Below the pieces are notes generated by a model. That model had not been told where the DNA came from. It saw only the letters and a list, made by a program, of their open reading frames with translations, and searched no databases. Made by a program: the position numbers and the translations under genes. 64,000 bases of DNA from Acidimicrobiia bacterium (GTDB taxonomy: Bacteria; Actinomycetota; Acidimicrobiia; Spongiisociales; SHLN01), in the NCBI GenBank assembly GCA_041567895.1, contig JBFGAX010000001.1:1578-65577 (forward strand), written 5' to 3'. This document shows positions 743-53,036 of the stretch, piece by piece (within the stretch, counting starts at the first letter, position 1; every line of letters starts with the position of its first letter).

Positions 743-2116
743 CTATCCCGCGGGATCCCAATCGGACATGTACGGGGCAACGAAAAAGTCGCTCACCGGC
801 TCCAGCCCGAACTGATTCTCCGCCGTTGCCACAGCAATGGCGTCGAGGTTCGTGGTGATGCGATCTTTCGGAGTCGGACCGAATCCGGCCGCACCGCCGC
901 CGAGCCCGAAGTCGACGTCCTGAACGAGGTCGACGGCTGACACCAGGCCCTTGCGGGTCAGGTCGCCGTTTTCGATTGCGGCCAACAGGATCTGCTCAAA
1001 GGTCTGAGCCTGCGTGAAGCCGAAGTAATAGAACGCCGTGATGGCCTCCGTCGGCACGCCTGCCGCCTCGGTGATTGCTCGCATCTGCTGCATGCCCGGC
1101 AAATCCGATTCCCACGTTGGCGAAGTACCGAGGTTGTAGAAGGGGAACGAGTTGAACGCCGCCGCGCCGGCCTCGGCTCCTCCTTCTCCACCAAGTGCGC
1201 CAAGCAGGACGTTGATGTACGACGGGCTCGAACCGAACAGCACAGGCGAGTATTGAATCGCCAGTGCAGTACCAGCCATCGTTGCCAGAGCGGTCGGCAA
1301 GGTGCATAGGAACAACACGTCGACGCCCGCTGCCTGGGCACCACCAACCTGGGCGCTGTAGTCGGTATCCGTTGCCGCGTAGGTTGCCTCGTACGCTGCG
1401 TTGAAGCCGAGGTTTTCCTGGGCGAAGTCGTAGCCATTCTTACAGTCCTCGCCGTAGTCGTCGGCCTGGTAGACGATCCCGACGACGCTCTCATCCGTTA
1501 TGACCGGCGGGTCGGCGATCTCCATGGCCCAGTACGGGGCGTTGGCGAACTGAGCGAAGTACGTGTTCGACGCCAGATTCAAAACGACGTTATTGGTGAG
1601 TGCCCACTGGGAAGCGAGCGATCCTGCTGCGACCAACAAGTCTTCGCCTGCCGCGTCTTCGTAAATGGTCGCGGTCGTTGGGGTTCCGATGGTCGACGAA
1701 AAGGCAAGGACCTCATCCTTGATTTCGTTGTAGACGACAACGTTCGTCTCCGGGTTGTAGGCGTTATCGCGAATCACGAGCTCGACGGGATACTTTCCGG
1801 CAACGCCACCGTCGGCGTTGACCGCGCCCCAGTAGGCCTGGTGACCTGCGAGCAAGGACTGACCGATACCGGCAATCGGGCCGGTAGTGGCAGCGAGGAC
1901 GCCCAGCTTGATCGTTCCGGTCTCGGGATCGAAACCGACGTCGCTGAGCATTTCCATTGCATCTGGATCGGGCTCGGGATCCGTCTCAGGAGCCGACGTC
2001 GTGGTCGGTGCCTCCGTAGTAGACGTCGCCAGGGTTGTCTCGCTCGTTTCCCCGCCGCAGGACACTGCAACGAGTGCCAGAACGGTGCACAGAGCAATCA
2101 GTTTTCTTACATTCAT
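743..2116 (-). CDS. ABC transporter substrate-binding lipoprotein, LivK/LivJ (branched-chain amino acid / hydrophobic acid) family
   Basis: ORF 743..2203. The likely true start is the internal MNVRKLIALCTVLALVAVSCGG (ATG at 2116), which has a signal peptide plus lipobox VAVSC. It is followed by a Thr/Pro-rich linker and a periplasmic-binding-protein type I fold. Confidence 0.85.
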   Translation of the reverse strand: MNVRKLIALCTVLALVAVSCGGETSETTLATSTTEAPTTTSAPETDPEPDPDAMEMLSDVGFDPETGTIKLGVLAATTGPIAGIGQSLLAGHQAYWGAVNADGGVAGKYPVELVIRDNAYNPETNVVVYNEIKDEVLAFSSTIGTPTTATIYEDAAGEDLLVAAGSLASQWALTNNVVLNLASNTYFAQFANAPYWAMEIADPPVITDESVVGIVYQADDYGEDCKNGYDFAQENLGFNAAYEATYAATDTDYSAQVGGAQAAGVDVLFLCTLPTALATMAGTALAIQYSPVLFGSSPSYINVLLGALGGEGGAEAGAAAFNSFPFYNLGTSPTWESDLPGMQQMRAITEAAGVPTEAITAFYYFGFTQAQTFEQILLAAIENGDLTRKGLVSAVDLVQDVDFGLGGGAAGFGPTPKDRITTNLDAIAVATAENQFGLEPVSDFFVAPYMSDWDPAG

Positions 2117-2209
2117 GGTGCTGGGATTTCCTTCTCTAGAGCGGCGGGAGGCTGGCCCGCACCGGACAAATGTAACCGCAACGAAACCCTTCTGCACGCT
2201 CAACGCGAT

Positions 2210-3373
2210 TTAATAGCTGAAGGGCCAGCCTTTCCAATAGTTGCGAACGCGGAGCCAGATCCCGAAAAGCCCGAGCGGCTCAAACACGAGGAACAGAATG
2301 ATGAACAGGCCGAAGAGAATCGCGCTGAAGACTGCGGTATCAAAGGTTCCTCCCCCAACGTCAGCGACGAACGGCAGCCATCCCTGTTGGGCGAGATACG
2401 ACACGAGCTCCGGAAGCCCTACCACGAACAGCGCACCCAGCGCAGCCCCTAGGACCGTTCCGATGCCACCGATCACGATCATCGCCACATATTCGACCGA
2501 AAGCAGAAGACCTGCGCCACCGCCGAAATTGCTTCCGATCGGGTTGCCGAGAAATACACCCAGCAATACGCCGGCCGCCCCCGCGTAGAACGAACTGATG
2601 CCAAATGCCACCAGCTTCGCCCACGTGACGTTGACGCCGATGACTTCTGCGGCGATATCACGATCGCGGGTTGCCTGAAAAGCCCGTCCGACTCTGCTGC
2701 GTGCGATGTTTTTGCCAACGAGATAGGCGATGATCGCGACGATCAAAGATGCGAAATACAGCTCTTCGCGATTACTCAGCCCAAAGAAAGCCTCCTCCTG
2801 TCCTGGCAGAACAAGAGATATAGGAGGGGCACTCCTGCCCCGCGAGGCTCCCGTGATCTGCTCGAGACCGGGAGCACCGAAGAGAAACTCACCAAAAAAG
2901 ACGAGGGCGACCGTCACCAGTGACAGATAGAGGCCCCGGAGCCGAACGGCGGCAGGAGCCACCAGCAAGCCAAGGACTGCCGCTACCAGACCCCCTGCCA
3001 GAACAGCCACCCACCACGGGAGGCCGAATCCCCAGAACGACACCCCCGAGAGCGTTGTGGCTCCCGGTTGCTGTGTCACCATGGCCCCCACGAACGCACC
3101 GACCCCCAGGAAAAAGGCATGACCCAACGACACCTGACCTGCGAATCCCGACAGGAGGTTCAGCCCGAGGGCACCCGTTGCCGCGATGAGGATCGAAATC
3201 CCGATGGTCAGCCAAAAGGATCCGCTCACGCCTATCACCGGCAGATCCGTTCTTGTCAGGAATGGAAATGCGACCAGAGCCGCAATCAGGATCATGAGCC
3301 AGGTCTTGTTCACCCGATCCGGAAACAGAGCCATGTCTTTGGCGTAGGTGGTACGAAGCTTGCGTTCGGGCAT
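2210..3373 (-). CDS. ABC transporter permease, LivM family
   Basis: 387 aa polytopic membrane protein with LivM-type conserved core. Start ATG overlaps the upstream permease stop (TGATG). Confidence 0.85.
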   Translation of the reverse strand: MPERKLRTTYAKDMALFPDRVNKTWLMILIAALVAFPFLTRTDLPVIGVSGSFWLTIGISILIAATGALGLNLLSGFAGQVSLGHAFFLGVGAFVGAMVTQQPGATTLSGVSFWGFGLPWWVAVLAGGLVAAVLGLLVAPAAVRLRGLYLSLVTVALVFFGEFLFGAPGLEQITGASRGRSAPPISLVLPGQEEAFFGLSNREELYFASLIVAIIAYLVGKNIARSRVGRAFQATRDRDIAAEVIGVNVTWAKLVAFGISSFYAGAAGVLLGVFLGNPIGSNFGGGAGLLLSVEYVAMIVIGGIGTVLGAALGALFVVGLPELVSYLAQQGWLPFVADVGGGTFDTAVFSAILFGLFIILFLVFEPLGLFGIWLRVRNYWKGWPFSY

Positions 3374-4408: not shown

Positions 4409-6268
4409 TCAGCTCCCGTAGATGTCTGTGATGAGCTCAGAGAACATTTCGCTGATCTTGCTGCGTTTCACCTTCTGCGTTGCGGTGAGCTCACCATCTT
4501 CATGGTCAAGCGCTTTTGGCATGAGCCGGAATTCCCTCACCTGCTCGACTCGTGCAAAATCCTCGTTGACCCTGTCAACCTCCTTTTGAATGAGTTCTCG
4601 CACTTCGGACTTTTCTGTCAGATCCCTGAATGTCGTGAACGGAATGTTCTTGCGAAGAGCCCAGGCCGAGACGGTGTCCAACTCGATACCGATGAGGGCC
4701 GATACGAACTTGCGTCGGTCTCCGATCACAATCGCCTCTTTTATGAAGGGGGACACCTTCAGCTTGTTTTCGATTTCTGAGGGTGAAAGGTTCTTGCCCC
4801 CGGCCGTCACGATGATGTCTTTTTTCCGATCGACGATCTTGAGATGATCTCCATCCCACTCCCCCACATCGCCGGTGTGCAGCCAGCCATCCGGTGTCCG
4901 CGCCTCGGCCGTTGCCTCGGTGTCCTTGAAATAGCCGACGAACACAGCCGGATGCCGAACCATGATCTCTCCGTCAGTGCCCAGTTTCACCTCGCACCCG
5001 GGGTTCGGGACGCCCACCGTTCCCAGTTTTGAATCCCCCATGCGGTTGACGGTCGCATAAGCGGTGTTCTCTGTTTGGCCGTAGCCTTCGAAGATCGGTA
5101 CTCCCAGAGCCATGAAAAACTTCAGCACTTCCGGGGCGATCGGAGCGGCCGCCGAAAGTGCACCAACTGCATGCCTCATGCCGATCTTGTCTTTCAGAGA
5201 CCGATAGCAAAGGACATGGAACGGCCAATGCACGAGTTCGCCCAGAAATCCCCGACGACCCGTCTCGAGTATGCGATCGGCGTTCCACATTCCGGCCTTC
5301 ATGGCCAGACCGAAGATGAATCTCTTGACAGGCGAGGCATCTTGCATACGCAGCAGGATGCCGGCGTGAAGCTTTTCCCAAATGCGAGGTACGCCGAGAA
5401 ATACGGTTGGTTGCACTTCCCGAAGATCGGCGGCCACGGTGTCGATCGATTCTGCGAAGTTCACGATCCCGGCGAAGTACAGCACGTTGATCGTTGAGTA
5501 CAACTTTTCGGCGACATGGCACAACGGCAGATACGAGAGGATCTCAACCGGGTCCGGCATGTCGGTCAAGCCTGCAGCAACGACCTCGGGAACCCGGTCC
5601 ATCACCCAGACAATGTTGCGATGGGACAGCATCGCTCCTTTGGGGGGTCCGGTTGTCCCCGATGTGTACACCAGTGTCGCCAGCGAGTCAGGATCAATGT
5701 CATCGACGAGGCGATCAACAAACGTTGGTTCCGATGCGAGGGCGTCCTCGCCCAACTCCATGAACTCCGTCCACGACATCAGCAAGGGATCCCGATAATT
5801 TCGAACGCCTCTCGGTTCGATGTAGATGATCCTGGTCAGGTGCGGCAGCTGGTCCTTCACTGCGAGTGCTTTGTCGACCTGCTCCTGGTCCTCGGCGATG
5901 AGGACTCTGGCTTCAGAATGCTGCAGCAGGTAGAGGACCTCGGGAGTCGGGTTGGTCGGATAGAGCCCAACGCTGACAGCTCCGATACTCTGCGCGCCAA
6001 GGTCGCTGATGACCCACGCCTTTCGGTTTTCCGAGTGAATTGCGACCACATCGCCCGGCTCGACTCCGAGCGATCGCAACGCCATGCCGACGGTGCGCAC
6101 GGCGTCCCAGTACTCCAGGTAATTCGTCTCCTGCCAGATACCGAATTCCTTCTCCCGGAGTGCGACCCGCTCCGGAGTTTGGCGCGCGATCTGACGCAGC
6201 CGGGCAACAACACTGTTGACGGAGATCTCAGCCTCGGGCGGTACGACGGGTCGTTGAGTTGTTGTCAT
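4409..6268 (-). CDS. AMP-dependent synthetase/ligase (long-chain or aromatic acyl-CoA ligase) embedded in the ABC operon
   Basis: 619 aa; AMP-binding motif LVYTSGTTGPPKGAML and overall acyl-CoA synthetase architecture. Confidence 0.85.
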   Translation of the reverse strand: MTTTQRPVVPPEAEISVNSVVARLRQIARQTPERVALREKEFGIWQETNYLEYWDAVRTVGMALRSLGVEPGDVVAIHSENRKAWVISDLGAQSIGAVSVGLYPTNPTPEVLYLLQHSEARVLIAEDQEQVDKALAVKDQLPHLTRIIYIEPRGVRNYRDPLLMSWTEFMELGEDALASEPTFVDRLVDDIDPDSLATLVYTSGTTGPPKGAMLSHRNIVWVMDRVPEVVAAGLTDMPDPVEILSYLPLCHVAEKLYSTINVLYFAGIVNFAESIDTVAADLREVQPTVFLGVPRIWEKLHAGILLRMQDASPVKRFIFGLAMKAGMWNADRILETGRRGFLGELVHWPFHVLCYRSLKDKIGMRHAVGALSAAAPIAPEVLKFFMALGVPIFEGYGQTENTAYATVNRMGDSKLGTVGVPNPGCEVKLGTDGEIMVRHPAVFVGYFKDTEATAEARTPDGWLHTGDVGEWDGDHLKIVDRKKDIIVTAGGKNLSPSEIENKLKVSPFIKEAIVIGDRRKFVSALIGIELDTVSAWALRKNIPFTTFRDLTEKSEVRELIQKEVDRVNEDFARVEQVREFRLMPKALDHEDGELTATQKVKRSKISEMFSELITDIYGS

Positions 6269-25209: not shown

Positions 25210-25380
25210 AAACCGTCTACTTCTCCCATCCGGACTCTCACCGTCGGCTCTGGAATTTCACCAGATCAGTCCCTGGGAACGCTGTGCGTTCCTGAGGAGT
25301 CGCGGGCTTGCGCGTCATCGACTATTGCCGATGGCGGCATCACCGCCGGTAGGGACTTTCACCCTGCCCTGAAGTAGGAC
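25210..25380 (-). ncRNA. FMN riboswitch (RFN element) in the ribD leader
   Basis: Minus-strand sequence CUUCAGGGCAGGGUGAAAGUCCCUACCGGCGGUGAUGCCGCC...AGCCCGCGACUCC...GAUCUGGUGAAAUUCCAGAGCCGACGGUGAGAGUCCGGAUGGGAGAAG matches the conserved RFN core blocks in order. It lies ~160 nt upstream of ribD. Confidence 0.85.
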
Positions 25381-29315: not shown

Positions 29316-29822
29316 CTACAGCTGAGCCTTGCGCCATTCGCGCATGAACTCGGTTCTCAAGTCAGGCTCGAGGCGTTTCAGTAACAGGATGCCGTTGAGA
29401 TGATCGACCTCGTGTTGCAGCATCCGTCCCATGAGCTCGTCGCCCTCCAATTCGATGGCTTGACCATCAATGTCGAAGCCGGCCACGTGAGCGTACTCGG
29501 GACGACGTATAGGCCAGAAATGACCCGGAACCGATAGGCAACCCTCGTCGAACTCATGGGTTCCACTCGTTTCGACGATGTCCGGGTTGATGATCGCGCC
29601 GGGTCCCTCTCCAATGTCGTATACGAACACTCGCTTCGAGATACCGATCTGGGGAGCGGCCAATCCCACTCCCGGAGCGTCATACATGGTTTCAAGCATG
29701 TCCTCGACGAGATGTTCGAGATGAGCGTCAAATTCCGTGACAGGCTGAGCCGTCTGTCGAAGGACGGGGTCGCCGAAGGTCCTGATGGGATATATCGCCA
29801 TGGCCGGGTGAGGATAGGTCAC
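29316..29822 (-). CDS. def: Peptide deformylase
   Basis: GVGLAAPQIG, EGCLSVPG and HEVDHLNG motifs. Confidence 0.9.
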   Translation of the reverse strand: MTYPHPAMAIYPIRTFGDPVLRQTAQPVTEFDAHLEHLVEDMLETMYDAPGVGLAAPQIGISKRVFVYDIGEGPGAIINPDIVETSGTHEFDEGCLSVPGHFWPIRRPEYAHVAGFDIDGQAIELEGDELMGRMLQHEVDHLNGILLLKRLEPDLRTEFMREWRKAQL

Positions 29823-31627
29823 AGGTCACGCGGATCTGCATCGACGCGAACCGTGATTCCCCTCTGTCGCCAGGTATGTATCACGTCTCGCAAACCAATT
29901 CGAAAAGCACGCAAATCACGCCCCTGCGCCAGCCAGCGGTATCCGTGGCCGGCCGGCGCCGGTCCGAACAGGTCCACGTCGCGCTGATCAGCGAGCTCAG
30001 GAAGCTCATCGGTGGGCTCCGACGTCTCAACGACAAGCACCTCCCCTGCCGGCGGCAACATCAAGCGAGCGCGTTCGGAGAGTTGTTCCATCATGAACTC
30101 CGAGGCATCCCCCCGTCGCAGGGCGACGATCACCGGATCAAGCGGGTGGCTGGTCTGCACGATCAGCCGGTTTCCTCTCCCCCGTTCGACGAGTCTCGCC
30201 ACCCGAACCATTATTTGGAGGGACCGCTCGCGAGCCCGGTAATGCGGAGCCGCGATCAACCCGTCTGCGTCAACAATCAGTGCCACATCGACACCGTTGG
30301 CCTCAGCGAGATCCGCTTCGCTTCCAACGAAAACCCGGTTCTCTGCACCGGACTCTGAGAGGTCGATATCCAATACTCGGCCAACGTGTTCGGCTATTCG
30401 GTCGACTCCGGCACCAAGCGGCTCGAATCTGGCACCGTGGCAGGCTGCACACACGCCTGACTCTTGGCCGCATCGCTCACACGCCGTCCCCCTGCCTAGT
30501 CGTGCCTCACAGGCTGAACACGTGCGGACGGTGCGACACTGCACGCATCGGAATGCCGGCGCATACCCCCTTCTATGAGCGAATACGAACACCCTCTTTC
30601 CGTTTTCGTAGGCATGTTTGAGCGCCCGGGTACCGGACGGACTGAGGAGCCGGCCTTCGGGTGGTTCCGCAGAACGATCAACCACCTCAACGAGCGGCCA
30701 GAGCCTCGTTGACGTGATCACGACTCCCACCCCTGCGTTCAGCAGGTCCGTTGAGGCCGTGGGGCCCAGGAATGCCAGCGCAAATTTCTCTACCGTCGCA
30801 CGTTTCCGCAATACCTCGCGCACGTGCATGGTTGGAGTCTGCGGCTCCTTCATGGCGGGACGTTCCTCCTCGACCGCAATCGAGATACCGAGATCAGCGA
30901 CCGGCCAAAGCACCCCCTCCCGGGTCCCGACGAGCACATTCCCCACCTGTGCAGCCATCCTCACCCACGCGCGCGTTCGAATTCTCGATTCGAGTCTGCT
31001 GTGGGTGACCACAATCCGGTTCCCGAACCATGCTTCGAGGGCCTGAGCCAGCCGATCGGTTTCGACCACGGTGGGCGCTATCACCATTGCTGATCGGCCA
31101 GACCCCACCACGGGTCCCAGCAAACCGGCAATAACGGCGGGCAATTCGTCACGCACGAGTATTGCCGTAGCCGGCGTCCGCTTGCGATTGGCGGCGGCCG
31201 ACGTGAACGACGGATGAACCGATGCTGGCGTTCGGGCCGGATCGTCAAGCGCGGGCAACCGGATTCTCTTTGGAAGATTCGGAGGCGTGGTTTTGGCAAG
31301 CACCACCGACATCGGAGCAACGTAGTGGGTTGCGATCCAGCGCAGCACCTCAACCCCCGAGGCCGAGAATGCCGGATAGTCGCTCGATACTGCAGCTATC
31401 GGCTTCAATCCCGTTGTCTCTCCGCGACGAAGGGAAATCACATACCCACGCTTCCTCCGGTTACCCACAGGAATCCTGACGACCGAGCCGACCGAGACGT
31501 CGAGTCCGGCAGGCACCGAATAGCTGAAGCCGTCATCGACAGCGAATGTGGGAATCGCTGGAACCACCTGTGCTATCAGCTGTTCGTCAGCGTCGCTCAA
31601 GCACCGTATCCCATAGCCGGTGAGCAA
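29819..31627 (-). CDS. priA: Primosomal protein N' (PriA) homologue with degenerate helicase motifs
   Basis: N-terminal 3'-DNA-binding domain and a Cys-rich zinc-binding insert (CVQCRTVRTCSACEARLGRGTACERCGQESGVCAACHG). The Walker A-equivalent reads GSGRS and the DExH position reads EEER. Confidence 0.75.
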   Translation of the reverse strand: MLTGYGIRCLSDADEQLIAQVVPAIPTFAVDDGFSYSVPAGLDVSVGSVVRIPVGNRRKRGYVISLRRGETTGLKPIAAVSSDYPAFSASGVEVLRWIATHYVAPMSVVLAKTTPPNLPKRIRLPALDDPARTPASVHPSFTSAAANRKRTPATAILVRDELPAVIAGLLGPVVGSGRSAMVIAPTVVETDRLAQALEAWFGNRIVVTHSRLESRIRTRAWVRMAAQVGNVLVGTREGVLWPVADLGISIAVEEERPAMKEPQTPTMHVREVLRKRATVEKFALAFLGPTASTDLLNAGVGVVITSTRLWPLVEVVDRSAEPPEGRLLSPSGTRALKHAYENGKRVFVFAHRRGYAPAFRCVQCRTVRTCSACEARLGRGTACERCGQESGVCAACHGARFEPLGAGVDRIAEHVGRVLDIDLSESGAENRVFVGSEADLAEANGVDVALIVDADGLIAAPHYRARERSLQIMVRVARLVERGRGNRLIVQTSHPLDPVIVALRRGDASEFMMEQLSERARLMLPPAGEVLVVETSEPTDELPELADQRDVDLFGPAPAGHGYRWLAQGRDLRAFRIGLRDVIHTWRQRGITVRVDADPRDL

Positions 31628-32762
31628 CTTCGGCCTTGGTGAGGGTCGGCCAGACGTCCTGTTGCCCGTCCGGCGTCACGAGCATGACCTGATTGGTATC
31701 TGTCCCGAACCCTGAGTCGGGTCGGGACACGTCGTTGGCTACGAGGAGATCGACCTTTTTACGCTTGGCTTTGTCGATGGCTCGATCGAGCGAACCCACT
31801 TCCGCCGCGAACCCGACGAGGTACGTCTCGGGCGATCGTTCTGCCACCCCGGCGAGCACGTCTGGAGTCGGTTCCATCGCCAGCGTGGGTGGCCCCGATG
31901 AACGGTCCATCTTCGCCTCTGATTTCTTGCCGGGCCTGAAGTCGGCGACTGCCGCGGCCATGACGGCCACGTCAAGACCCTCGAGCGAAGCCCACGTGGC
32001 CTCGGCCATCTCCTCGGCGGATTCGACCGTGATAACAGATATGTTCTCGTGGACAGGAGCACTCACCGAGGTGATCAGCCACACGCGAGCTCCTCTTCTC
32101 GCCGCGTCGAGAGCAATGGCGTTGCCCATCTTTCCGCTTGAACGGTTGCCGATGTAGCGAACAGGATCTATCGGCTCCCGCGTGCCACCGGCCGTCACCA
32201 GAACGGTCAAGCCATCCATGTCCCCCGGTCCCAGAATTCGAATGACCTCAGAAAGAATCTCGTCGGGTTCGACCATCCTCCCGTGGCCGTGGTCGCCGCT
32301 GGTCAACGCTCCTTCATCCGGGCCAACGAGATGAACGCCATCGGCAAGAAGTTGGGCAGTATTTCGACGCGTTGCAGGTTGCTCCCACATCTCGGTATGC
32401 ATAGCAGGGGCGAACAGGCGGGGAGCTTTCGAAGCAAGCAACGTTGCCGACAGCAGATCGTTCCCCCCGCCAATCGCGGCTCTCGCCAGAAAGTTGGCCG
32501 TTGCCGGCGCAACCACGATGATTTCTGCCCAACGGGCTAGATCGGTGTGAGGGCTCGGCGTCAGCCCGTCGAACAGGTTGGTATGCACGGGACGCCCGGC
32601 GATCGCGGCCAGAGTTTGCTGGCCGACAAACTGCTGAGCCGCATCCGTGAGAATGACTTCGAGTTCGGCACCGGCCTCTATGAATCTCCTGGCGAGATAT
32701 GCGGCTTTATAGGCGGCAACGCCTCCACTGATACCCAGAAGAACTCGCCGACCGGCGAGCAC
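31587..32762 (-). CDS. coaBC: Bifunctional phosphopantothenoylcysteine decarboxylase / phosphopantothenate-cysteine ligase
   Basis: Flavoprotein N-domain (VLLGISGGVAAYKA) plus DFP C-domain. Confidence 0.9.
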   Translation of the reverse strand: MLAGRRVLLGISGGVAAYKAAYLARRFIEAGAELEVILTDAAQQFVGQQTLAAIAGRPVHTNLFDGLTPSPHTDLARWAEIIVVAPATANFLARAAIGGGNDLLSATLLASKAPRLFAPAMHTEMWEQPATRRNTAQLLADGVHLVGPDEGALTSGDHGHGRMVEPDEILSEVIRILGPGDMDGLTVLVTAGGTREPIDPVRYIGNRSSGKMGNAIALDAARRGARVWLITSVSAPVHENISVITVESAEEMAEATWASLEGLDVAVMAAAVADFRPGKKSEAKMDRSSGPPTLAMEPTPDVLAGVAERSPETYLVGFAAEVGSLDRAIDKAKRKKVDLLVANDVSRPDSGFGTDTNQVMLVTPDGQQDVWPTLTKAEVAHRLWDTVLERR

Positions 32763-32763
32763 G

Positions 32764-32997
32764 TTACTCCGGCTCGACGATGTCTACCGCAACCTTGCCT
32801 GCCGCGATTTCCTCGAGTGCAATAGACAGCGGCTTGCGGGACAGCGTCTGCACCTGAGGCGGTGCGTACGTCCCGATACCTTCGCCGAGCTGGTTGTAGT
32901 AGGCATTGATCTGGCGTGCTCTCCTGCTCGACAGGACAACGAGCGTGAAGCGAGACTTCGTCTCCTTGAGGACGTCTTCGATTGGCGGGTTGATCAT
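32764..32997 (-). CDS. rpoZ: DNA-directed RNA polymerase subunit omega
   Basis: 77 aa; SRFTLVVLSSRRARQINAYY is the canonical omega. Confidence 0.9.
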   Translation of the reverse strand: MINPPIEDVLKETKSRFTLVVLSSRRARQINAYYNQLGEGIGTYAPPQVQTLSRKPLSIALEEIAAGKVAVDIVEPE

Positions 32998-33840
32998 TTA
33001 TTGCATCCGAAACTTGGGGAGAACCCGGAGTATAGAGCGCAGCTCCTCTGCGGCACGTTCTACGTCGTCGTTGACGACGGTGAAATCAAAAAAGGGCACC
33101 TCCTCCAGTTCCCTTCGCGCCGTGTCGAGGCGCTCGCCAACATTGGTTGTGTCACCTCGTCCTTTGAGTCGCTGTTCCAGCTCTTCGACGCTCGGGGGAA
33201 GGATGAATACGAGCACCGCCTCGGGCATCGCGGTCTTTACCTGCCGGGCTCCCTGGACTTCGATTTCGAGCACGACGTCTCGACCCGCTTGCAAGTGTTG
33301 TTCGACCGCCGCACGCGGCGTACCGTAGAGGTTGCCTGCGTACTCCGCCCACTCGAGCAGGCGATCTTCCTCGATCCATTCCTTGAATTCTTCTTCACTG
33401 AGAAAGAAGTAGTCACGGCCGTCTTTTTCGCCGGGACGCATCTGCCTCGTCGTAGCTGAGACCGAGAGGTGAAACGTCGTCAGCTCGGCGAGAGCTCGAA
33501 TCACCGTTCCCTTTCCTACTCCACTCGGCCCGGAGACCACGATCAACCGCCCGCGTGCCAACTCGAGAAGTGCCTTGCGGGCTTCAGGCCGGAGATCCGC
33601 GATTCGGACGGTCTCGTCGACCCCCAGATCCTGAAGGCAGGAAAACGTTTTGACCTTTCCCACGCCTGGTATGACCCACATGAGTGATGCCACTTTCGAT
33701 GCGCCCAGCGTCGAATCGTCTACCGCCTGGTCGAATAGTTCCTCGAGGGTCATCGATCTCGTGCGGAGAGCCTCTCGGGCGTGCCTGCGTGCGTCCCGGA
33801 AGCGTGCAGCATGGTCGAGCACGTCATCGCGATCAGCCAC
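32998..33840 (-). CDS. mihF-gmk: In-frame fusion of actinobacterial integration host factor (mIHF/sIHF family) and guanylate kinase
   Basis: Single ORF with no stop between the two parts. The N-part (ARRHAREALRTRSMTLEELFDQ...KVASLMWVIPGVGKVKTFSCLQDLGVD...RPEARKALLELA) resembles mIHF. It joins directly to the Gmk P-loop (RGRLIVVSGPSGVGKGTV) and a full guanylate kinase. The probable start is GTG at 33840, overlapping the pyrF stop by 8 nt. Confidence 0.7.
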   Translation of the reverse strand: MADRDDVLDHAARFRDARRHAREALRTRSMTLEELFDQAVDDSTLGASKVASLMWVIPGVGKVKTFSCLQDLGVDETVRIADLRPEARKALLELARGRLIVVSGPSGVGKGTVIRALAELTTFHLSVSATTRQMRPGEKDGRDYFFLSEEEFKEWIEEDRLLEWAEYAGNLYGTPRAAVEQHLQAGRDVVLEIEVQGARQVKTAMPEAVLVFILPPSVEELEQRLKGRGDTTNVGERLDTARRELEEVPFFDFTVVNDDVERAAEELRSILRVLPKFRMQ

Positions 33841-34600
33841 GCGATACTCCGGCGATCTCCTCGTTGATACGTACAGCGGCCTCGAGCGGGTCTGTGGAGG
33901 CAGTGATAGGGCGCCCGACCACCAGATAATCGGCGCCGCGTGCAACGGCTTCGGATGGTGTCGCCGAGCGGCGCTGGTCTGCAGGTTCGCTTGCAGCGGG
34001 GCGAATGCCGGGCGTCACCTTGACCAGTTCGGGAGCAACGTCAGCGACCACTCCGAGTTCCGGGACTCCGCAAACAACACCTTCGACCCCTGCCGCGGCT
34101 GCCGCGCGAGAAAGTCGTGAAACCAGCTTCCCGGGCGTTGTCCCTGGGGAGATCCTCTCTACGTCATCCGGTTCGAGGCTGGTGAGGACCGTGACCGCCA
34201 GGATTCCGACATCGCCACCGCCCGCGCCCGACCTCATACCTTCGTTGGCGGCCTCCATCATCGTCCGACCCCCGGATGCGTGGACCGTCAACCATCGTGC
34301 GCCGTAGTGACCGACCCGCCTGGCCGCCGCCTCGACCTGGGATGGAATGTCGTGAAGTTTGGCGTCGACGAATACGGGGAGGCCAAGACGCGCCAGGGCC
34401 GCAGTGGTAGCAGGTCCAGGTCCCATCAAGAGCCCCAGGCCGATCTTGAAACCGGCGACATGATCCTTGAGTCGTTGGGCGGTTGTCACGGCTTCGTCCG
34501 CGCTGGGTAGATCGAGCGCCAACAGGATGCGACTCGCTACCACGGTGTGGCAGTTCCAACCAGGTCTGCGGGCGACGACTCGTTGTTGTGTCGCAACCAA
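33833..34600 (-). CDS. pyrF: Orotidine 5'-phosphate decarboxylase
   Basis: LLALDLPSADEA and FVDAKLHDIP motifs. The track start overlaps pyrD; the true start is probably a GTG/TTG ~60 nt downstream. Confidence 0.85.
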   Translation of the reverse strand: MVATQQRVVARRPGWNCHTVVASRILLALDLPSADEAVTTAQRLKDHVAGFKIGLGLLMGPGPATTAALARLGLPVFVDAKLHDIPSQVEAAARRVGHYGARWLTVHASGGRTMMEAANEGMRSGAGGGDVGILAVTVLTSLEPDDVERISPGTTPGKLVSRLSRAAAAAGVEGVVCGVPELGVVADVAPELVKVTPGIRPAASEPADQRRSATPSEAVARGADYLVVGRPITASTDPLEAAVRINEEIAGVSRG

Positions 34601-35441
34601 CGGTTCAGTTCCTTGATGATTCGTTTACCGGCGCGTGGCTCGGCAAAATGCGTCGAGCCGATCTGAACCGCAGACGCACCTGCCATGAGGTACTCCACAA
34701 CATCCCGACCGGAACGAACACCGCCACAACCCACGATCGGAAACCCGGGCAGCGATTGATGCACTTCCCAGACACAACGCAATGCAATCGGCTTCAGACC
34801 GACTCCTGAATAGCCGCCGACACCGCCGGAAAGCAGGGGCTTTCGAGTGTCGATGTCGACCCCGAATCCCCAGGCTGTATTCGTGAGAACCACCCAGTCA
34901 GCTCCTGCGTCCTGAACGGCCGCTGCCACCCGCACGATGTCTTCGCTGTTGGGTGACAGTTTGGCGCCGATCGGTTTGCTGGTTGCGGCCCTGACCTCGG
35001 AGATGACCTTGGCCGATGCGTCAGGGCTCAGCGCGAACATTTCATGATCCAGATTTGGGCAAGCGAGGTTGACCTCAACGGCACCCACGGCGGCCACGCC
35101 ATCGATGGCAGCCGCGACCTGGGCGAACTCGGCAACTGTATGCCCGACTGCCGAGGCCCACACGTCAACGTCCAGGTCAGCAAGTGATGGGGCGAACTCT
35201 TGCAGCCAGGCTTCGACACCCGGGTTTTGGATGCCGATGCCGTTCAACATCGACGCACCCACCGGTGCCATCCGTGGCGGCGTTCTTCCGTCCCATGCCA
35301 CCGGGGAGACTGACTTTGCCACTGCTGCGCCATAAGGCCGGAGCGATGCAACTTCGGCGAATTCGACGACCGATCCGACGGTTCCCGACGCTGCTATCAG
35401 AGGGGTTCGGAGGTCCTTGTCGCCGAGTTTGACGGCCAAAT

Positions 35442-35445
<4 letters not shown>
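34537..35445 (-). CDS. pyrD: Dihydroorotate dehydrogenase (class 1, cytoplasmic type)
   Basis: 302 aa TIM-barrel with NLACPN and GGVRSGRD motifs. GTG start overlaps the carB stop (GTGA). Confidence 0.85.
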
Positions 35446-38683
<3,238 letters not shown>

Positions 38684-52707: not shown

Positions 52708-52977
52708 GTTGTATTGCCTCCTATGACAATGAATCCGGGACGCAATGCGCGCCCCATGTACAACAGCTGTATCGGCGCCCCTCCCAGCTTCCTTGAGGGT
52801 GATCGACCAATTTCCCAAACGAACTAGTCCCCCGGGTATGCACCCTGAATGCGCTGCAAAAAGGCGCAGTCATCGCTTGGAGACAATCCGGGCCAACCGT
52901 GGGCTCGTCACAGTTCACATTCAACGTGCAGGCCGAGCGAAGGTTCGTTCGCTTTCGGTCGAGAGGGGGTTTGAGGG

Positions 52978-53036
52978 GCATGCGCAGTATTAATGAGGTG
53001 GCATGCGCAGTGTCAATGAGGTGGCATGCGCAGAGG
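52978..53036. repeat. Three direct 23-bp repeats (GCATGCGCAG-T(A/G)T(T/C)AATGAGGTG) between pilC and the pilin gene
   Basis: Copies are at 52978-53000 and 53001-53023. The third, at 53024, is interrupted by a 20-bp palindromic insert (agggcttcgagccct) before its GTCAATG half. The whole array is flanked by the inverted repeat tgaggggc/gcccctca. Confidence 0.6.

Follow-up and report, generated by a model that had tools for sequence, protein, structure and literature searches.

A 64,000-nt stretch of contig JBFGAX010000001.1 from an Acidimicrobiia bacterium (assembly GCA_041567895.1, positions 1,578 to 65,577; hereafter the window) carries on its minus strand a gene whose first third resembles the actinobacterial nucleoid protein mIHF (sIHF in Streptomyces) and whose remainder encodes guanylate kinase (Gmk). 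Mycobacteria require mIHF, a nucleoid protein that is still poorly understood. The gene is, with high probability, a genuine and evolutionarily fixed translational fusion of the neighbouring, co-transcribed mihF and gmk genes, and would yield one polypeptide of about 31 kDa. As the first-pass annotation of this DNA had described, the IHF-like sequence runs into Gmk without a stop in one open reading frame (ORF) of 280 codons, and the peptide strings quoted there are present.

The junction reads …KALLEL-AR-GRLIVVSGPSG and holds no linker. Both domains reach the ends of their hidden Markov models (HMMs), about three residues lie between them, and nothing resembling a leftover spacer was observed. 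In an AlphaFold2 (AF2) model built from alignment A2 (predicted local distance difference test, pLDDT, 93.3; predicted template modelling score, pTM, 0.86), the last IHF helix (residues 85-94) leads into Gmk strand b1 (residues 99-103).

When related genomes were surveyed for this junction, the pattern …ALxEL-Ax-GRLxVVSGPSG was found at 51-97 % identity in no fewer than eight assemblies that stem independently from different projects, and it recurs uninterrupted in L001, L002, L003, L090, L091 and L092. The full-length relatives include P0001 (97 % identical), L001 (88 %; Acidimicrobiia metagenome-assembled genome JABDOU01), L002 and P0002 (77 %), L003 and P0004 (68 %), P0005 to P0008 (64-67 %) and P0010 (51 %). 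They share the context pyrF-[fusion]-rpoZ-coaBC where flanks are available.

Ratios of non-synonymous to synonymous substitution (dN/dS) were calculated by the Nei-Gojobori method among the window, L001, L002 and L003. The IHF part gave 0.13-0.27 in five of the six pairs and 0.44 in the saturated pair L002-L003, and the Gmk part gave 0.08-0.09; both halves are under purifying selection. Across residues 94-103, the window and L001 differ by three synonymous changes and no non-synonymous change. The earlier claim of a genuine in-frame fusion, as opposed to simple read-through or a sequencing error, is borne out by the recurrence of the junction and by the constraint on both halves.

The N-terminal and C-terminal domains

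The likeness of the N-terminal part to mIHF, noted in the first-pass annotation, was confirmed by profile search. Pfam H2TH_5 (PF22525) matched residues 25-93 with 37.3 bits (gathering score 27; model positions 1-69 of 71) and NCBIfam actino_IHF (NF041260) matched residues 3-93 (model positions 9-99 of 102; E=1.7e-14). In a PDB sequence search, the N-terminal part alone matched M. tuberculosis mIHF (6tob, E=3.3e-9) and S. coelicolor sIHF (4itq, E=3e-8). The domain has the sIHF fold, with a long N-terminal helix and a four-helix H2TH core, and it retains the PGVGKVK hairpin, which corresponds to the secondary DNA contact of sIHF (PMC3627587). It also lies immediately upstream of the gmk-rpoZ position, where L081, L085 and L087 carry separate genes in the same order. 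When the IHF part was used by itself as the query of a word-indexed homologue search, 25 candidates came back, none of them significant, and no second IHF copy was found within the 64-kb window. By its profile matches and its location, the N-terminal domain is a homologue and the positional orthologue of mIHF, although it is fused in frame to Gmk and is not the free-standing protein of about 100-110 aa that is typical of actinobacterial IHF.

The C-terminal part has the Gmk fold and matched both Pfam Guanylate_kin (PF00625; 169.6 bits against a threshold of 25.2) and NCBIfam TIGR03263 (231.3 bits against 160.45; model positions 1-179 of 180) over residues 97-272. The Gmk motifs are all in place, namely the P-loop GxxGxGK[ST], the GMP-binding S-x-S-x-TTR…R-x-GE, the Tyr/Glu/Tyr set and the LID arginines. 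Alignments A1 and A2 show no or almost no variation at residues S126, S128, T130, T131, R132, R135, E138, Y144, E163, Y172, R224, R228 and R237; their functional roles are those that we take from established knowledge of Gmk structures. With its motifs intact and its strong constraint, this half would be the guanylate kinase of the cell, converting GMP and ATP to GDP and ADP.

Role of the N-terminal domain

DNA is contacted in sIHF chiefly through a basic lid of 11 residues that lies between helices a4 and a5, jointly with the a5 dipole; its N-terminal helix makes no contact with DNA (PMC3627587). Among 39 canonical stand-alone IHFs, the net charge of the lid was +1 to +4 (e.g. GIASNRRIRGLSERQR) and that of the domain mostly +5 to +12, whereas the lids of the window's clade carry -1 to -3 and the whole window domain carries -2. 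In the alignment to mIHF, ETVRIADLRPEAR takes the place of the basic lid TRRLRGLGDRQR, and neither the basic lid nor the overall basic character of mIHF/sIHF is seen in the window domain. The N-terminal domain may thus differ from a classical DNA-coating nucleoid protein. Its designation in the first-pass annotation as a nucleoid-associated protein is right as to homology and position and uncertain as to function, with the basic lid gone and a score of 54 bits where 60 are required for the NCBIfam equivalog.

We lean towards a domain that no longer coats the nucleoid in bulk and that would more likely act as a Gmk-attached module for protein-protein or weak nucleic-acid contact via PGVGKVK. 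A protein-protein contact was proposed by Swiercz et al. for the conserved N-terminal helix of sIHF, and such a contact is a candidate role for the window domain. The essential msIHF is functional with EGFP fused to its C-terminus (PMC10028186), and therefore the IHF fold tolerates a C-terminal partner.

Alternatively, the N-terminal domain could still be a working nucleoid-associated DNA-binding module, in which case GDP synthesis would be anchored through the fusion protein to the chromosome or the transcription machinery. We regard this as a real but lesser possibility. The fold and the PGVGKVK hairpin are retained and the domain is under purifying selection; the fusions of Nanopelagicales and Microbacteriaceae keep a basic lid (RRxRGLGxRQR); the tolerance of msIHF for C-terminal partners and the adjacency of the locus to rpoZ also fit. 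Against it stand the neutral to acidic charge of the lid and of the domain, where sIHF relies for binding chiefly on a basic lid and its N-terminal helix stays off the DNA, and the missed NCBIfam equivalog cut-off.

A further proposal, which we hold to be rather unlikely, is that what was once a nucleoid protein now serves the acid-lid clade without a linker as a regulatory or docking domain of Gmk, perhaps in contact with topoisomerase I, with RNA polymerase or its omega subunit, or with components of the stringent response. The recurrent fusions would then be a 'Rosetta-stone' signal of a physical mIHF-Gmk interaction elsewhere. If so, mIHF and Gmk might touch even as separate proteins in Mycobacterium and Streptomyces, which would link the supply of GTP precursors to chromosome organisation and transcription.

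Several observations weigh against our preferred reading of a fixed fusion with an attached, non-coating module. The N-terminal part scored 54.1 bits with actino_IHF and did not reach the equivalog cut-off of 60. The inter-domain confidence of the AF2 model is limited by an N-terminal domain covered by only about 13 sequences. The loss of DNA binding is deduced from charge and sequence only, and acid lids also occur in some stand-alone IHFs at the same genomic position (P0255 in L087, P0194, P0128 and P0166). As acid lids are found in stand-alone IHFs and basic lids in other fusions, the change of the lid is a trait of the lineage and not a consequence of fusion. The closest GenBank relative (P0003, L001 5857-6843) is annotated by NCBI as a 227-aa 'guanylate kinase' that begins at the internal Met54; its ORF really extends upstream to a GTG equivalent to window position 33840, and the Met54 call hides the fusion. 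Finally, the window does hold TTG, TTG and GTG codons at the junction, and some internal initiation in this organism is possible.

Gene boundaries, internal starts and origin

The start of the fusion was placed at GTG 33840 because the homologues start there and GGAG lies upstream (Table 1); L001 and L003 likewise have GGAG or GGAGG upstream of the fusion start. The longest ORF found mechanically runs from 33945 to 32998 (315 codons), and its TTG at 33945 sits within pyrF. This TTG was rejected as the start, as it lies inside pyrF and the homologues all begin at a GTG or ATG equivalent to 33840. The extension (33841-33945, minus strand) amounts to 35 codons, by which the residue numbers of the first-pass annotation (L134 and V136) are offset. 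Met54 (MWVIPGVGK) was also rejected as the true start, since it would halve the H2TH domain and residues 2-53 are conserved (dN/dS 0.27).

Table 1 Positions of the fused gene, its parts and its immediate neighbours in the window
Feature	Position	Strand	Details	Basis
Fused mIHF-like/guanylate kinase coding sequence	32998..33840	minus	280 aa; GTG start 33840; TAA stop 32998-33000	ORF and translation; full-length homologues at 51-97 % identity
mIHF/sIHF-type H2TH domain	33562..33834	minus	residues 3-93	
H2TH hairpin PGVGKVK, retained	33649..33669	minus	residues 58-64	alignments
Lid between helices a4 and a5	33577..33624	minus	residues 73-88, GVDETVRIADLRPEAR; net charge -1	lid charge survey
Fusion junction L94-A-R-G-R98	33547..33561	minus		HMM end points, AF2 secondary structure, substitutions relative to L001
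Start-capable codons at the junction	33538..33561	minus	TTG L94 (33559-33561), TTG L99 (33544-33546), GTG V101 (33538-33540)	not conserved in relatives
Complete guanylate kinase domain	33025..33552	minus	residues 97-272	
P-loop GPSGVGKGT	33505..33531	minus	residues 104-112	
Shine-Dalgarno-like GGAG	33847..33850	minus	6 nt 5' of the GTG start	upstream sequence CGCCGGAGTATCGC-GTG
Overlap of pyrF stop and fusion start	33833..33840	minus	8 nt; TGA stop of pyrF at 33833-33835	sequence GTGGCTGA
rpoZ (omega subunit)	32764..32997	minus	ATG abuts the fusion TAA	TAAATG

The gene order is carB, pyrD, pyrF, the fusion, rpoZ, coaBC and priA, all on the minus strand and closely spaced. The abutment of the fusion stop and the rpoZ start was also found in L090 and L091. 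Translation would begin at the gene's own GTG, served by the upstream GGAG, and would probably be tightly coupled to pyrF through the overlap and to rpoZ through TAA-ATG. In M. tuberculosis, mihF-gmk-rpoZ forms an operon with polar effects (PMC6155035), which makes a fusion of mihF and gmk plausible.

It could be argued that, in spite of the continuous ORF, initiation at TTG L94, TTG L99 or GTG V101 yields some or most of the Gmk as a free-standing protein, so that the two functions are physically separate. The unfused L087 gives this some colour, as its gmk starts at a TTG right before GRL and a product M-ARGRLIVVSGPSG is therefore plausible as a Gmk N-terminus. However, no position at the junction keeps a start-capable codon across the seven members of the clade: L94 is TTG in two of six (the junction of L092 differs and has no equivalent), L99 is TTG in three of seven and V101 is GTG in four of seven, and L091 has no ATG, GTG or TTG among the 14 codons preceding SGPSG. 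The sequence GGGCGG, named earlier as a weak ribosome-binding site, touches TTG L99 without any spacing and matches the anti-Shine-Dalgarno sequence poorly, and a start at V101 would lose most of strand b1. When positions 32500-36000 were scanned for promoters and terminators, the IHF part showed no promoter-like site on the minus strand and no terminator was seen to separate the two domains, both of which are weak evidence. With no internal start codon conserved and none at all in L091, conserved production of a separate Gmk by re-initiation is unlikely, the suggestion of an internal TTG or GTG start is not sustained, and we give a physical separation of the two functions little credence.

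An assembly or sequencing artefact, in which mihF and gmk were merged by a frameshift where the two lie close together or overlap, is extremely improbable here: the boundary is indeed short or overlapping in relatives, such that a single indel error could fuse the genes, and some database 'fusions' carry evident frameshift junk (P0125, P0130, P0138 and P0176), yet sequencing error is excluded for this clade because independent assemblies at 51-97 % identity have the same junction architecture and diverge there only synonymously, with flanking domains complete to their HMM ends and nothing like a leftover spacer.

In L090, a 54-kb ENA contig, pyrD is called as 80+204 aa and pyrF as 57+161 aa (1394-3008), and the 280-aa fusion is intact; the split calls suggest frameshift errors near the fusion in that contig.

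Unfused relatives likely show the precursor states of the fusion. In L087 (1223-2087), the nearest of them, a 98-aa acid-lid IHF ending …GALLTALS* is followed after 10 nt by gmk, which has a TTG start in a different frame, encodes 185 aa and begins MGRLFVIFGPSG ((M)GRLFV). In the public annotation this gmk begins further downstream and is just 164 aa long, a call under which the P-loop would be lost. In L081 and L085, the two genes are called separately and overlap out of frame by 41 and 29 nt; mihF encodes 103-104 aa, with the ending …ALIDELS* or …ALLSELG*, and gmk encodes 202-206 aa. In the ancestor, the two genes would have been separated by 10 nt or would have overlapped out of frame. A small deletion of a length not divisible by three, for which 10 nt would fit L087, presumably took out the mihF stop and a short spacer, so that the last IHF helix came to adjoin the first Gmk strand directly.

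Other differences were observed along the same operon. In the unfused L081/L082, coaC (Flavoprotein, 179 aa) and coaB (DFP, 220 aa) are two overlapping called genes (4847-6038), and the window has a single 391-aa CoaBC (31587-32762), a second fused/split difference in this operon. In L083, L085 and M. tuberculosis, metK lies between coaBC and priA; it is absent from the window (29819-32762, minus strand) and from L081. In the window, priA follows coaBC directly, and its longest ORF overlaps coaBC by 41 nt. Elsewhere in the window, a full-length FMN riboswitch (RF00050) was found at 25214-25380 on the minus strand (103 bits; gathering score 66), unrelated to the fusion, and a short tandem repeat was found at 52972-53033 (23-nt unit, 2.7 copies, 92 % matches).

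Distribution and comparison with known systems

When residues 1-140, which span the junction, were compared exhaustively with 1.84 billion cluster representatives using phmmer, at least about 20 distinct 50 %-identity clusters had a match covering both domains. A profile of 21 fusions (A3) was also searched against a set of 5.8 billion proteins. All 120 top clusters listed were 268-315 aa long, except for the 227-aa P0003, which is cut short at Met54, and precomputed PF22525 and PF00625 hits exist for nearly all of them. The listed named fusions are all labelled 'guanylate kinase' only, and the sources of fusions are Candidatus Nanopelagicales, Pontimonas sp., Galbitalea sp. SE-J8 (a cultured Microbacteriaceae isolate, present in RefSeq and UniRef), Actinomycetota and Acidimicrobiia. 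One fusion cluster has 245 members, on contigs of up to 720 kb. A literature search found no paper describing an mIHF-Gmk fusion. The architecture is widespread in public actinobacterial data, where it is catalogued, and undescribed in the literature; it is not rare, and the view of the first-pass annotation that a fusion of this kind is unusual is at odds with its presence across the 120 top clusters listed.

Some database entries (P0125, P0130, P0138, P0176, P0136 and P0213) are 'fusions' from frameshifted assemblies that turn into Arg/Pro/Ala-rich nonsense. Fusion counts taken from protein databases are therefore inflated.

The linker varies among the fusion groups from 0 to about 17 extra residues. 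In a rough neighbour-joining (NJ) tree of Gmk domains, fused sequences fell into at least eight groups interleaved with unfused ones. This interleaving suggests repeated fusion or fission, as a hint only, since a tree of mixed taxa without support values is too crude for counting independent fusions.

mihF-gmk-rpoZ is a conserved actinobacterial operon, and the fixation of mIHF-Gmk fusions in several lineages is a testable hint that mIHF and Gmk work together. Current annotation hides the IHF half, either under the name 'guanylate kinase' or by truncation at the internal Met. As a result, mIHF might be recorded as absent in error when the nucleoid proteins of Acidimicrobiia, Nanopelagicales and Microbacteriaceae are surveyed. 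The acid-lid variant also offers a natural loss-of-charge mutant for probing the role of the lid in DNA binding.

The window protein was compared with known proteins of both families. With mIHF (Rv1388, PDB 6TOB) and sIHF (SCO1480, PDB 4ITQ), its N-terminal domain shares significant sequence similarity across nearly the whole protein, the position between pyrF and gmk-rpoZ (PMC6155035) and the PGxGKVK hairpin. Unlike them, it is not a free basic protein of about 105 aa, being fused at its C-terminus and scoring below the NCBIfam equivalog cut-off.

With bacterial Gmk (Rv1389, PDB 1S4Q; TIGR03263), the C-terminal domain shares a full-length match above the trusted cut-off and all catalytic and GMP-binding residues, but it lacks a separate start codon and N-terminus. 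It is also without the low-complexity N-terminal extension of about 20 residues that some unfused Gmks of Acidimicrobiia and mycobacteria carry. The earlier statement that some 20 N-terminal Gmk residues are deleted thus holds in comparison with N-extended Gmks (P0012, P0019 and M. tuberculosis) and not in comparison with L087, whose Gmk starts (M)GRLFV; the TIGR03263 domain of the window is complete.

Eukaryotic MAGUK proteins also join a guanylate kinase (GK) domain to other modules, there PDZ and SH3 domains, but their GK domain binds proteins and has no catalytic activity. The window GK domain retains every catalytic residue, and its partner is an H2TH domain.

A parallel is given by the other H2TH_5+Guanylate_kin proteins (about 290-310 aa) of Nanopelagicales, Pontimonas, Galbitalea sp. 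SE-J8 and other Actinomycetota. They share the domain order, the 'guanylate kinase' annotation and, where checked (L048 and L083), the pyrF-[fusion]-rpoZ-coaBC context. They differ in having 11-25 extra linker residues and the basic lid RRxRGLGxRQR; in the window's clade the linker is missing and the lid is acidic or neutral, and the fused groups may have arisen independently.
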